64,000 bases of DNA from Vulcanimicrobiota bacterium (lineage in GTDB: Bacteria > Vulcanimicrobiota > Vulcanimicrobiia > Vulcanimicrobiales > Vulcanimicrobiaceae), in assembly GCA_963833095.1 (NCBI GenBank), contig CAWHWQ010000001.1, forward strand, positions 1 through 64,000, in the 5' to 3' direction. Every line of letters begins with the position of its first letter. Position 1 is the stretch's first letter. The position numbers are program-made. Below are positions 30,001 to 38,855 of the stretch, in pieces.

Positions 30001-33000
30001 CCCGTTTCTGCTTTGTGCTTCACGCTTGCGCGCAGCACGACGAGGGCGTTTTTGGGGCCCGGCACCGGTCCGCGCACGAGCAGCAAGTTGCGCTCGACAT
30101 CCGCGCGAACCACTTCGAGGTTCTGCATCGTCGTGCGGTCGACGCCGTAGTGACCAGGACGTCGCGCACCCTTCGGAACGCGTCCCGCGTTGGTGTCGCC
30201 GTTGGACGCCGGCTGACGATGAATCATCGAGCCGTGGCTTGCGCCGCCGCCTCGAAAATTATGACGTTTGATGCCGCCCGAAAAACCGTGGCCTTTCGAG
30301 ATGCCGACGACGTCCACGCGGTCGCCTGGTTCAAAACCGGCAACCGTGATTGTTTGGCCGACTTCGACGCCGTCGATGCCGGTGCGAAACTCGCGCACGA
30401 AGCGCGCCGCCTCGACGCCTTGTTTCTTGAAATGTCCAGCAAGGGCACGGGTAACGCGGGACTTCTTAACCGCGCCGAAGCCGAGCGCAACGGCGTCATA
30501 GCCATGCGACTCTTTCGTGCGGCGTTCCACGACCGTGCAGGGACCGGCTTCGATCACCGTGACCGGAACGTTACGTCCGTCGTCGGTGAACACGCTCGTC
30601 ATCCCAACCTTGCGGCCAAGGATATTTTTCACTTGAATCCTCGCCCTGAGAGCTGGTAAGCACACGGGTCCACGCGTACTGCTATTTGCTTTTACCGGCA
30701 CGCGCGAAGAGAGCGCGGACCGGCTGGACCACAACCTCGGCACTATATCAAGGTGGCGCCCCACCGTCAAGAGGGTTTGGCCGTCCTTTGGACGGACGCA
30801 CCCCCTGTGCTCCACTCCTTCGGTCGCTTCGTGCGGCCGGCCCTATTCATTGTCCTCGCTCTTGTCGTTGCCGGATGCGCTCGGCCGGAGGGCGGTGGCC
30901 GGGACCTCACGATCGTCCAGACTCAGGATTTTCCGAGTTTGGATCCGATCTTTGTCAGCGGCGTCGGCGGTCAAGAGCTGGCGGCTCTTCTCTATTCCTA
31001 TTTAGTGAAGTTCGACGACCGCGGGGAGCTGGTTCCCGAGGCCGCCCTCGAAGTGCCGACTCGCAAGAACGGCGGCATCAGCCCGGACGGCCTGCGGATC
31101 GTCTACCATCTACGTCCGGGCATCCGGTTTTCAGATGGCAGCACCCTTACCTCGTTCGATGTCGCCGAGACGATCGGCCACGTGACGTTCCCGGGTTCGG
31201 ACGCGCCTTCGCGAGTCGCTTTCGACGACATCGCTGCCATTTCGACCCCCGACGACATGACCGTCAAGGTGTACCTGCGCACCCCATACGCGCCGATCGT
31301 CCTGTATCTCTGCGGACCCGGTAATGCGGTCCCCATTCTCTCCGCCCGGCAACTTGCGGGCCATGCCCACCTGCGCGGTACCGTCCTCGACAGCGCACCG
31401 CTGGGAAGCGGGCCGTATCGCGTCGATCGCTGGCGTCGCGGTGAACGTTTGGAGCTGCGAAGCAACCCGTACTATTTCGGCGGCAAGCCCAAGATCGACC
31501 GGATCACCATCCTTCCGGTCCCCTCGTCGATCACTGCGTACGAGATGCTGCGAAGCGGTGAGGCCAATGCGTACGTGAATGCCGACGACTCGCAGTTCGC
31601 GCAACTCGACGCGCTGCCGGGCAAGCGCACCGAGGCGATTCCGATCGACGGGACCGGTGCGCTGATTTTCAACATGACGCAGACCATCTTGCGCGATGCG
31701 CGGGTACGACACGCCTTTACGCAAGGACTCGATATTCGTTCCATCGTCGACAAGACGCTGCTCGGCGGCGATCGCACGCGTGATCCCGGACGCGGACTGT
31801 TCGAATGGGCATACGATCCCGTCGCGTATGCGATGCCGGCGCATAACGTGAGCGCCGCCGCAAAAGCGCTGGATGCCGACGGCTGGCGCATGGGAAACGA
31901 CGGGCTGCGGCACAAAGGCGGCGCGAGTCTAAGCCTTGATATCATCGTGCGCGCTGATAAACCGAGCGCGCTCGAGATGGCGACGTTGATGCAAGCGCAG
32001 GAGCGTCCGCTTGGTATCCGCCTCTCGATTCGGCGGTTTGCAGTGAGCGCACTCGTGGCTCCGAACGGACCGCTCTACGGCGGCCACTACGACATCGCGC
32101 TGTTTCCGTTCATCGCGGGCTTCGACCCAGACGTGCGCGACCAATTTTCATGCAAGCGCATTCCGCCGAACGGCTTCAACAAGGCTCGCTACTGCAATCC
32201 CGCACTAACTCGGGTTATGAACGAGGCTGTGCGGCCCTACGATCGCGCGGCACGGATTCCGTATTACCGCGAGGTGCAGCGAGTTCTGGCGGCCGATCTG
32301 CCGATGGTCGCAATGTACCAGGCTGTTTCCATTGACACATTTCCGTCGTGGCTCCGAAACGAACACGCGGCCGTCAACACGCCCTTTTGGAACGTCGCGG
32401 ACTGGACCTACTAACCTTTATCGCTCGAAGCTGAAGCCTTGACGTTTGAAGTCGGGTTCAAAGCCACATGACTACGCAAATTTCGGCCGCCGCATCGGGA
32501 CAATTCGCCATCGGCGGCGACCTGACAGTCAACCGGCTCGGCTTCGGAGCCATGCGGATTACCGGCGCAGGCGTTTGGGGCGATCCGAAGGATCTTGCGG
32601 GCGCTCGCGCGACTTTGCGTCGCAGCGTCGAGCTCGGCGTGAATTTTATCGACACGGCCGACAGCTACGGACCCGAAGTCAGCGAGAATCTCATTCACGA
32701 GGTGCTGCATCCGTATCGCGGTGTCGTGATCGCAACCAAGGGCGGCCTCACCCGCCAAGGTCCGGGTGAGTGGTATCCCGTGGGTCGGGGAGCCTACCTG
32801 CAACAATGCGTGCAGATGAGTCTGCGCCGTCTGGGCGTCGAACGTATCGACCTCTGGCAGTTGCACCGCATCGATCCGCAGACCCCGCGCAAAGAGCAGT
32901 TTCAGACCATCGCTGCGATGCAACGCGACGGATACATCCGCCACGTTGGCCTTTCCGAAGTGAGCGTCGGCGACATCGAGGAGGCGCAACAGTACTTCCC

Positions 33001-36000: not shown

Positions 36001-38855
36001 AACGAATCGCGCGCCACCCAACTCGCCGGCTCGATCGTAGAGTGCGCGCAATTCCGCCGTCATCGACTCGTATGCGGGGCCCTCGCGGGGTAGGTACGAG
36101 GCTGAGCGCGTGCGCCCGATAAGCCCTTCCCAGTCCACGGTCTTTTCATGCCGAAAATCGAGCACGCGTACCCGCGTCCACCCGTGTTTGCGCAGGTCGT
36201 CATCGACTGCGGTTTTACGTCGACGGGTCTCCGTGTCGTCCGTCATGTACCGGCGGATGATGTCGCTATATGCGAGCATGAACTGATCGGACTCGTCGCG
36301 CTCGTTCCAAACGGCGGCGAATCGTGCACGCGGACTGCCTATGCGCTCGGCTTCGCCCAGCACACGATCTGGATCGAACCAGTGGTAGGCCTGGAACGCC
36401 GTGATGATGTCCACGCTGCGATCAGGAAGCGTTGTCCCCTCCGCCGTTCCGTCAACCACGACGACGTCGGCCCGAGACGGAATCGACGAACGCATGGCGC
36501 CGTTCGGTTCGATTGCAAAAACGTGCGCGCCCGCATCGGCGAGCAAGACCGACGAAATCCCGGTACCGGCTCCAAGATCGGCAATGCGGGGCTTTGTGAA
36601 TCCGTCGAGTATCGCTGCGATCGCCTCGACCGGATAACTGGGCCGATAACGCGCATAGTCTTCCGCGCGCTTGCTGAACCTCGTCGTCGGATCCATAACG
36701 CGTGATACTACGGCTTCGGCTCGCTCCCTCGCTCCGCGAGTTTGCCGAGATGCTGGACGACGAGGATCGCAATAATCGTCACGATGACCGCGTAGATAAG
36801 CTCAGCGATCACGCCGTTGCCCGGCTTAAGGAATAAGGCAATGAAATCTGAGATGAACTTATTCCACGCCCCAGCTGCAATCAGGCCGAAAGCCACCGTC
36901 GCGAGCGAGAGCATCGTACCGAAATAGGTCGGTTTGAGTTCCATGAGAGTCTCCTTATCGTTCGTCTACTTAAGGCGGAACCGCACGCACGGATAGCCGA
37001 CGGCGCACGGGTTGTTGACGACGGTCGCTCGGATGTTCCCGTTGGAATCCGCGTTCCTGCCTTGGGTGCTCACGAGCGGATGCGCGCAATTCTTCTGCGC
37101 CGTCATTTCGAAAAGCGCTTCTTCGGGACGTTCGGAGAAGTCGGCGCGGTGGCTATTGCTGTGCGGTCCGACGCAGTACCACGCGATATTCTCAATCCGG
37201 GTGCCGATGATCTTTTCCACCGAGGCGCGCACCGTCACCCAGACCCATCCGTCGCTTTCATTCGCGACGTCGACGGTCCAGTTGCCCGCGGACGCAGGCA
37301 ACGAACTGAGCATGATCGCGCCGGCAATGAGGGTCGCAACGCAGAGTGTCTTGAGTCGCATGGGTCACCTCAAGGAAAGAAAAAAGCCCGAAGCAATGCT
37401 TCGAGCTTTGATGTTTCCGCTGCCCTTCGAGGCCCGCCTGCGGCGCGCACCTCAGGGTGACAAATGCACTACGCCTTGAGTTCGATGTCGACGCCGGCTG
37501 GGAGATCGAGGTGCATGAGTGCATCCATCGTCTTGGGCGAGGCTTGAAGGATGTCGATGAGCCGCTTGTGCGTGCGCATCTCGAAGTGCTCGCGCGACTT
37601 CTTGTCGTTATTCGTCGAGCGTTGGACGCAAAAACGGTTGATCTCGGTTGGCAACGGCACCGGACCGCTCACGAACGCACCGGTGCGTTTGGCAGTATCG
37701 ACGATACGCTCGGCCGACTGGTCGAGAACTTTGTGATCGTACGCTTTCAGACGAATGCGAATCTTCTGCTTTGACATCTCTATCCTATATTTTCAATGAA
37801 CTCAAGGGGCCAGGGGCTACTCTACCACGGAGTCAGGTATTTGTCACCCTGAGCGTTAGCGCGTAAGCGCGAAGTCGTGTATGGCAGTCTACGGTCGGCT
37901 ACGGCGCTTCGCGCCTACGCTCGGGATGACAAGGGGATTACTCCGATACCGCGGTGACGACGCCGGCGCCGACGGTCCGCCCACCCTCGCGGATGGCAAA
38001 CCGCAGGCCGGGTTCGCACGCGATCGGGGTGATCAGCTCGACGTCCATCTTGATGTTGTCGCCGGGCATGACCATCTCGACGCCCTCGGGCAGCTTGATG
38101 GTGCCGGTCACGTCGGTCGTGCGGAAGTAGAACTGCGGACGGTAGTTCGCAAAGAACGGCGTGTGACGGCCGCCCTCTTCTTTTGACAGCACGTAGACTT
38201 CGGCTTTGAACTTGCGATGCGGCTTGATCGAACCGGGCTTGGCAAGAACCTGACCGCGCTCGATGTCGTTGCGCTCGATGCCGCGCAGCAGCACGCCGAT
38301 GTTGTCGCCGGCGATACCGATGTCGAGCAGCTTGCGGAACATTTCGATGCCGGTCACGACCGACTTGCGCGTGTCTTCTTGCAAGCCGACGATCTCGATT
38401 TCTTCACCGACTTTGACCTGGCCGCGCTCGACGCGTCCGGTTCCGACCGTGCCGCGGCCGGTGATCGTGAACACGTCTTCGATCGGCATCAGGAACGGCT
38501 TGTCGATTTCACGCACCGGATCGGGGATGTATGCATCGACCGTGTCCATGAGCTTGAAGATCGGATCGGCATCCGGGTCGCCCTTTTTGCCGCTCGATTA
38601 AGCGCCTTGAGCGCCGAACCGCGGATGATCGGCGTGTCGTCGCCCGGGAACTCGTACTTGTTGAGCAGTTCGCGAATTTCCATCTCGACCAGCTCGAGCA
38701 GCTCTTCGTCGTCGACCAGGTCGACTTTGTTCAAGAACACGACGATTCGCGGAACGCCGACTTGGCGCATGAGCAGAATGTGCTCGCGCGTTTGCGGCAT
38801 CGGACCGTCGGTCGCAGCGACGACGAGAATCGCGCCGTCCATCTGCGCCGCGCCG

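Follow-up and report, generated by a model that had tools for sequence, protein, structure and literature searches.

The closest described counterpart of the locus is the rpsJ operon of Mycoplasma gallisepticum, whose WhiA operator (GATACACC-N7-GTTGT; CAGTACGCG-N7-GTTGT in M. hyopneumoniae) was shown experimentally, with repression at low energy (Fisunov et al. 2024, PMC11701221). Mollicute sites lie 22, 25–30, and ~40 nt downstream of the transcription start (+1), and a far-downstream site acted weakly in a Mycoplasma reporter; clostridial-type WhiA sites carry WGG after the core and an auxiliary GTGTAC or GTTTAC, and the published site table, from which the phylum treated here is absent, also holds deviant cores (PMC11701221). 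In M. tuberculosis, the rpsJ operon was among the WhiA targets found by ChIP-seq (PMC10243135, PMC13473873). Autoregulation through boxA and Nus factors has been described for suhB of E. coli, and a boxA at rpsJ for three gammaproteobacterial genera (PMC5725501).

The window analyzed here, i.e., the whole stretch of 64,000 nucleotides of a Vulcanimicrobiota contig, contains the features listed in Table 1. Its gene order bears out the survey's finding that rpsJ follows tuf and lies 6.8 kb from rplC, with eight genes in between (SBP_bac_5, two aldo-keto reductases, an acyl-CoA dehydrogenase (ACAD), an SRPBCC-like protein, a methyltransferase, DUF5654, and a hypothetical protein). These genes had been regarded as unrelated, but they include a conserved core, as the 141-aa SRPBCC-like gene and the acyl-CoA dehydrogenase were located between rpsJ and rplC in 43/43 loci holding both flanks. 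The claim that no rpsJ occurs near rplC holds generally, with the exception of one genome of the same order (G027), in which the two are just 737 bp apart and separated by the SRPBCC-like gene alone. This gene is the probable founding insert. In the sister order, rpsJ adjoins rplC in 16/16 genomes; the separation is confined to a single order of soil bacteria. A small gene block would have been inserted between rpsJ and rplC in the ancestor of the order, and this would have cut str and rpsJ off the L3-led S10-spc-alpha cluster. Cyanobacteria have tuf-rps10 with a separate rpl3-led operon. Archaea likewise encode uS10 apart from uL3-uL4-uL23 (PMC10833476), but compared with these rpsJ-less L3 clusters the present split is an independent event in a single order. 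Near 38597–38598, tuf lacks one base, which is the single gap relative to three relatives. Separately, one further, independent rpsJ-rplC split was observed in genome G083.

Table 1 Features of the rplC and rpsJ loci (positions in the window)
Feature	Positions	Strand	Remarks
adk, fused to map	18709..20178	-	within rplC-led S10-spc-alpha cluster
rplC (uL3)	29994..30632	-	PF00297; GTG start 30632; opens S10-spc-alpha cluster
Putative WhiA operator	30661..30680	-	core AGTACGCG 30680-30673, 7-bp spacer, auxiliary GTGTG 30665-30661
GC-rich 5′ hairpin	30694..30724	-	fold conserved, optional
5′ motif GGTTGTGGTCC	30726..30736	-	near predicted +1
rplC-operon promoter, sigma-70-type	30742..30770	-	TTGACG-17-TATAGT, extended -10; kept in 150/151 leaders
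Intervening block, rpsJ to rplC	30753..37361	.	eight genes
Acyl-CoA dehydrogenase	33333..34517	-	kept in intervening block
SRPBCC-like protein, 141-aa	35508..35933	-	in 43/43 loci; Atlas neighbours include Polyketide_cyc2/SRPBCC clusters
Intrinsic terminator after rpsJ	37383..37409	-	12-bp stem, U tail; similar hairpins in most relatives
rpsJ (uS10/NusE)	37469..37777	-	PF00338; closes str operon, after tuf
boxA-like sequence, putative NusB-S10 site	37790..37801	-	few nt before rpsJ Shine-Dalgarno
rpsJ promoter-like site	37819..37847	-	GTGACA-17-TAGAGT; consensus match only
tuf (EF-Tu)	37938..39136	-	called as 2 ORFs

Based on its sequence and with +1 placed from the -10 box (~6–7 nt past it), the rplC-led cluster would be transcribed from its own sigma-70 promoter. 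The survey's claim of such a promoter was confirmed: among the order's 151 distinct regions upstream of rplC, the only one without it is truncated by a contig end; the leader set excludes loci with less than 120 nt upstream of rplC. Promoter and motif were recovered together in 67/71 genomes of the family, with 0 matches for a reversed control pattern, and a scan of 7.8 kb returned 2 promoter-like sites vs 1.4 expected. The GGTT of the 5′ motif likewise stands after the -10 box in most rpsL promoters and most rRNA promoters of the same genus, and GGTC in most tuf promoters. Assembled contigs of relatives from four runs (shares of at most 0.10) ended at 30724 (two) and 30746 (one) and left 30772–30835 uncovered; such contigs cannot reveal a transcript start and were given no weight.

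The leader downstream of this promoter had been presented as a conserved RNA. Its sequence conservation was upheld (3′ motif in 151/151 of the order's distinct regions upstream of rplC), and the RNA part was upheld for the inner 5′ hairpin alone (median z of -3.2 for 125 long leaders), while the outer stem was not. If the element were an r-leader RNA, a 5′ GGUCC arm would pair with a 3′ GGRYC around the optional hairpin, and translation would be stopped by an operon-encoded protein, with L4 as the precedent. This would suit the real inner hairpin, optional inserted hairpins being typical of RNA motifs, as well as the consistent location of the motif upstream of an r-protein gene, with the box 23–119 nt ahead of the start codon; all five outer pairs are possible in 86/150 leaders, and RNA structures upstream of rplC have been predicted in cyanobacteria and archaea. 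However, the observed pairing of the five outer pairs equalled that expected from column composition (0.89/0.86, 0.84/0.86, 0.70/0.68, 0.92/0.92, and 0.86/0.86 in 150 leaders), variable columns freely break the stem, and no covariation above chance was detected in these leaders, i.e., the little outer-stem covariation that the survey had named as speaking against its own reading. The outer stem thus pairs at chance level, and both at tuf and upstream of the promoter the 3′ motif also occurs without its RNA partner, the 5′ arm. For the most part, the reading as an RNA leader therefore fails, and it is considered unlikely. For the inner hairpin, which is absent from 9/150 leaders, column covariation was weak (2 of its 10 pairs ranking among the best 20 of 3160); it may be an accessory RNA fold, perhaps shielding the transcript end.

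Comparisons with known RNAs also spoke against an r-leader. In agreement with the survey, searches of the leader and 18 relatives against Rfam, including S10-Clostridia, gave chance matches only at E-values up to 10, and the RF03136 covariance model, run on the genome, had no match at the leader even at an E-value of 10. The Firmicutes S10 leader (RF03136) is also positioned upstream of the S10 cluster and has the short words GGUUG and CCGUGGA in common with the present leader, but differs in architecture. Mimicry of rRNA (S8 or L4/L24 type) found no support at the sequence level: the leader motif had no match in the 16S/23S rRNA of three relatives (best PWM score 2.6 bits) and its longest word in common with 23S rRNA was 8 nt, equal to shuffles. 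Three further pairings were rejected for not exceeding independence, invariant pairs being uninformative: a pseudoknot (ACG/CGU with GGUCC/GGRYC), a 3′ hairpin enclosing the box, and pairing of the 5′ GUUGY with the linker. The case cautions that conserved leader sequences before r-protein operons may be DNA operators mistaken for RNA motifs.

Judged from its sequence, the conserved element before rplC is most likely a putative WhiA DNA operator rather than a new regulatory RNA. Throughout the order, the box comprises a core RRTACGCC and an auxiliary GT(G/T) seven bases on, with a conserved inner WGG. The counts given for it are partly circular, as the motif itself was used for site picking: compared with GAYACRCY, core positions 4–7 agreed in 150/150 leaders, position 3 in 128, position 8 in 140, position 2 in 69, and position 1 in 25, and the full match was present in only 20. 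The auxiliary GT at 7 bp was found in 150/150 leaders (GTG in 133, GTT in 16, exact GTTGT in 12), GT having belonged to the picking pattern; in a set picked without GT the share was 97–99%. The box is usually located at +53 to +57 from the predicted +1, further downstream than the Mollicute sites. Strict helical phasing of this downstream site was rejected, its spacing to the promoter varying from 27 to 93 (27, 32–33, 51, 58–66, and 90–93).

The rpsJ-operon site in M. gallisepticum shares with the present box the 8-bp core, the 7-bp spacer, the auxiliary element starting with GT, and the position downstream of +1; in both cases the box fronts a large r-protein operon with adk, and whiA is present. 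By contrast, the box here precedes rplC, has the core RRTACGCC with the inner WGG, and is usually positioned at ~+54 behind an RNA hairpin. In actinobacterial WhiA sites (GACAC/GACACGCC; PMC10243135, PMC13473873) the core also ends in ACGCC, but actinobacterial WhiA has a large regulon and acts mainly as an activator, jointly with WhiB and from positions upstream of -35, whereas the promoter-plus-box matches here are almost only of the rplC and tuf type. A genome-wide PWM search in genome G000 yielded 14 matches, and those scoring best after the leader, within fusA (at its DTPGHVD codons), rplV, and a gene for a kinase, were treated as coding coincidences; no clear further target of a wider regulon was found among 30 inspected matches from five genomes. 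The candidate WhiA regulon would be tiny, and the phylum includes Vulcanimicrobium, which is in culture.

The gene for the presumed regulator was detected in 36/41 relatives, and the three misses within the order coincide with the neighbouring gene, gap, being unassembled or truncated at a contig end. The protein has HEN and HTH domains (in G000 the gene carries a frameshift, within a noisy stretch) and retains four of the five tested C-terminal residues that contact DNA in Streptomyces (R266, L274, K287, and R293; Arg at K287 in family f2), the base-contacting R295 being replaced by Ser. None of the 22 whiA loci checked carried an upstream box. In the sister order, 9/11 genomes have whiA, but rpsL, tuf, and rpsJ lack the box there, and genome-wide pattern counts are not above the control; whiA-bearing outgroup families have no box at the S10 loci. 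That the phylum's other lineages with whiA lack the box, that the inner GG is invariant, and that core positions 1 and 2 deviate would fit an operator of another, order-specific protein with a coincidental likeness to WhiA sites. Such a coincidence is nevertheless improbable, somewhat more so than an r-leader, given the exact 8 + 7 + GT spacing, a target operon with adk and a downstream position as in the published case, and the fact that clostridial-type WhiA sites in the literature also have the inner WGG. WhiA, in turn, would bind the box ~54 bp past the predicted +1 and repress the promoter when energy is low. The full account, consisting of the split, a predicted WhiA operator repressing the rplC promoter, and separate boxA control of rpsJ, is judged to be quite probable. 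The placement of the box supports a conserved role of WhiA in linking energy to the ribosome.

At the detached rpsJ, a boxA was present in 42/50 tuf-rpsJ gaps of at least 60 nt, as opposed to 1/151 rplC leaders; one mis-mapped row (L074) was left out of the boxA/upstream-ORF set, so that 64/65 rows were kept. The motif recurs in the rRNA leaders of the same genus, and PF01029 matched at two loci in G000 (nusB or rsmB each). By analogy, the boxA suggests a putative NusB-S10 autoregulation, in which surplus NusB-S10 would repress rpsJ translation in the way Nus factors act at E. coli suhB. As there, a gene for a Nus factor has an rRNA-type boxA within ~55 nt of its start, but phylum and boxA consensus (CYTTGAAAA/CTTTGACAA) differ. 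Since str ends with rpsJ, boxA control could not spread to the other r-proteins. S10 seems to have its own separate feedback signal. In several lineages S10, which is also NusE, has moved out of its operon, and a boxA on rpsJ is a possible reason.

What is new compared with the published cases is that, after the split, the predicted WhiA-type box is found at rplC and not at rpsJ, extends to tuf, and, in one genus, has a second copy upstream of -35. The rearrangement is a natural one in which the box stays at the L3-led cluster with adk and also reaches EF-Tu. At the internal tuf promoter, a box at the same distance was identified in 14/27 loci and was absent from the other 13, and in some genera it would also control this promoter. 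A second box on the same strand upstream of the rplC promoter was found in 15/149 leaders from four genera; its start precedes the -35 box by 34–36 bp (10), 44–47 bp (4), or 22 bp (1), the distances being helically phased. These copies are not independent, as they stem mostly from one genus. No further above-threshold box match was detected on either strand of the 32.6 kb scanned. In genus g18, all 13 sampled genomes had the upstream copy, which precedes the -10 end by ~64 bp, and two WhiA molecules could flank or loop the promoter, a WhiA-closed DNA loop being so far a proposal only. As a tentative extension, the split may have freed separate controls, with S10/NusE throttling itself via boxA, the r-protein cluster (and EF-Tu in some genera) under ATP-sensing WhiA, and, in g18, two phased sites, symmetrical with respect to the promoter (near -64 and +63 relative to the -10 end), closing a DNA loop. 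In genome G159, the ORFs upstream of the second box copy are divergent.

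On the minus strand of the window, rpsL, rpsG, fusA, tuf, and rpsJ are followed by a 12-bp terminator 3' of rpsJ, eight unrelated genes, and then rplC, which forms the downstream cluster with rplD and the remaining S10-spc-alpha genes, including secY and adk. The closest rplC loci were mostly from Vulcanimicrobiota/Eremiobacterota, Baltobacteraceae, Aquilonibacter, Cybelea, and Tumulicola. The detachment of rpsJ described in the survey's finding was recovered across the order, as rpsJ and rplC were adjacent in none of 30 same-order genomes (one contig in 20, different contigs in nine, no rplC hit in one). 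The two genes lay 0.74 to 10.5 kb apart in 19 of these 20; in G019, rpsJ was located ~21 kb downstream of rplC, with str-rpsJ placed downstream of the rplC-led cluster. Adjacency was found in 11/11 genomes of family f3 of the sister order (including the unpublished G036) and in 5/5 further ones, with tuf immediately 5' of rpsJ wherever the contig extended that far. Of 25 cases from the phylum's other classes, 24 had the two genes no more than 356 bp apart, and G083 (locus L212) represents a separate, independent loss of adjacency. By this distribution, the split is derived and confined to the order. The 356-bp interval of G116 (L194) contained promoter-like sequence; the box described below was found neither there nor at L212. 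Cyanobacteria have a tuf-rps10 gene order and a separate rpl3-led operon. In archaea, uS10 is likewise kept apart from uL3, according to the available text of PMC10833476.

A gene for an SRPBCC-like protein and an acyl-CoA dehydrogenase gene were present between rpsJ and rplC in all 43 informative loci (of 80), and in G027, from the other family, the SRPBCC-like gene alone occupied a 737-bp interval, which points to a single founding insertion at the origin of the split. The protein had no Pfam hit, its SRPBCC likeness being based on Atlas features.

For the rplC leader, 166 loci were reduced to 151 distinct upstream regions (effective number ~81, strongly weighted to one family). The operon's own promoter, as claimed by the survey, was identified in 150/151, and the 3' box in 151/151. 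The layout was TTGAC-17-TAnnnT, GGTTGYGG, a GC-rich hairpin, an A-rich linker, and RRTACGCC-WGGNYCM-GTG (the box: core, spacer, and GT auxiliary). The distance from the -10 to the box was 58–66 in 135 leaders, 51 in one, 27–33 in nine, all without the hairpin, and 90–93 in the five leaders of family f2. An independent pattern search for promoter plus box retrieved 67/71 family genomes with zero control hits. Its 75 matches (including the unpublished G237), typed by eye on the leader sequence, were 66 rplC-type, eight tuf-type, and one before a tRNA-like sequence. This last match, a box behind a tRNA-like promoter, and a box overlapping the -35 of rpsL in L328 (G147) were single cases. Two of the four best genome-wide matches to the box consensus lay in coding DNA, one in the DTPGHVD codons of fusA and one in rplV; these recurred in 8 and 25 related loci and may be either chance matches or additional binding sites.

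The survey had interpreted the leader as a conserved RNA, and of this the inner hairpin stood, folding per sequence with a median z of -3.2 (78% below -2, 125 long spacers), with weak column covariation measured on a slipping alignment. The outer stem, i.e., the proposed pairing of the 5' motif with the 3' box, did not: pairing exceeded expectation at 0/5 positions, with U-C, C-C, and G-A tolerated, in line with the little covariation that, according to the survey, would refute its reading. As the stem columns are mostly near-invariant, the stem is unsupported rather than disproved. The whole leader of the window folded no better than shuffles (z -1.09), Rfam searches gave nothing, as before, and no copy of the box or leader motifs was present in rRNA. 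That the leader acts as an r-leader is improbable. Table 1 of Eckert and Weinberg (PMC7247131) contains no such leader, and the available portion of PMC2662882 does not mention rplC; that of a cyanobacterial screen reports a structure upstream of rplC (PMC12873609).

Judged by its second copies and its copies at tuf, the box is DNA-like in behaviour. A second copy was located upstream of the -35 in 15/149 leaders, always on the same strand, beginning 34–36, 44–47, or 22 bp before the -35; inter-copy distances were 114, 124–127, or 136–139 bp, in steps of about one helical turn. Twelve were from genus g18, whose 13th sampled genome had a weaker copy, and one each from three further genera. Some started 3–13 bases from the stop codon of the preceding gene, and in G159 the ORFs 5' of the copy point away. 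The same box followed an internal tuf promoter in 14/27 tuf loci, behind a different hairpin and ~62–66 or 28 nt after the -10; the other 13 had neither box nor clear promoter.

The feature is real, with its molecule misread: it is probably a WhiA operator plus an accessory RNA hairpin. According to the available text of Fisunov et al. 2024 (PMC11701221), Mycoplasma gallisepticum WhiA senses ATP and represses the rpsJ-operon promoter, binding a GAYACRCY core and downstream GTTGT (spacing 7 bp, 22 nt after +1); its site table gives an equal layout in other groups, and several tabulated sites are nearly identical to the order's box. ChIP-seq targets of M. tuberculosis WhiA include the rpsJ operon, as stated in part of PMC13473873. 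Direction of control and ATP sensing at rplC would, by analogy, be those of Mycoplasma. WhiA was encoded in 36/41 relatives and 15/18 further family members (an overlapping set); in the three negatives of the order, the gap gene, which adjoins whiA, was unassembled or at a contig end. The same-genus protein was alignable with 8DY9 and 3HYI and, by this alignment, keeps R266, L274, K287, and R293, with Ser replacing R295, residues tested according to the available text of PMC10243135. In the window genome, whiA lies directly 5' of gap and carries a frameshift within a noisy region; the gene is intact in relatives. Against WhiA, core positions 1–2 deviate in most sites, and no box was found at these operons in the sister order or whiA-bearing outgroups. 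In at least two f3 genomes, gap was present without whiA beside it. In a literature search covering mostly open-access papers, neither WhiA sites nor the gene arrangement described here came up for Vulcanimicrobiota. In published tables, the B. subtilis WhiA site lies immediately 3' of a AGGTTGCTG stretch. The same stretch is central in the rows of Rfam S10-Clostridia, which raises the possibility that a WhiA operator and the S10 leader RNA predicted for Firmicutes overlap.

Locations of features in the window and in related genomes
Feature	Location	Strand
141-aa SRPBCC-like protein, unannotated, retained in the rpsJ-rplC interval throughout the order	35508-35933	-
fusA box match	41033	-
rplV box match	27644	-
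tuf, missing base	38597-38598	
adk-map frame	18709-20178	-
rpsL leader	~42230-42310	-
whiA, window genome (G000)	C1:839124-840011	+
str-rpsJ and rplC-led cluster, G019	C3:858-22412	
Box behind tRNA-like promoter	G127:C28:50843-50950	

The detached rpsJ carried a C[ACT]TTGA[AC]AA-type motif 21–55 nt before its start in 42/50 loci where tuf and rpsJ are separated by 60 nt or more, and in 0/12 where the gap is shorter (controls: 1/151 rplC leaders; 0.003 expected per 90-nt window). The motif is taken as boxA because it also sits in rRNA leaders (10/10 same-genus and 4/4 f3 loci), and we infer boxA-mediated autoregulation of rpsJ. Baniulyte et al. (PMC5725501) treat boxA/Nus autoregulation at E. 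coli suhB and at rpsJ of three gammaproteobacterial genera. In L369 (G015), the rRNA spacer and 23S start after the 16S are AT-rich, unlike the genus, possibly a chimeric contig end.

Compared with its counterparts in three relatives, the sole tuf of the window genome is one base short, probably through an assembly error. Genes adk and map share one 489-aa frame, as in same-genus G002 (520 aa), and are apparently separate in four other genomes. The rpsL leader of the order (window and L325-L337) contains a conserved GGCC hairpin and then TTTGTGTG; f3 rpsL leaders (L339-L352) are 150–250 nt long and structured-looking, with shared blocks, before a fused str-S10 superoperon. In outgroup family f5 (L189, L190, L192, L195, L197), the rpsJ-rplC gap holds a different conserved element of 100–130 nt, GCAGCCGCTGG ... 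GAGGTC ... GCAAGCT, a possible r-leader.
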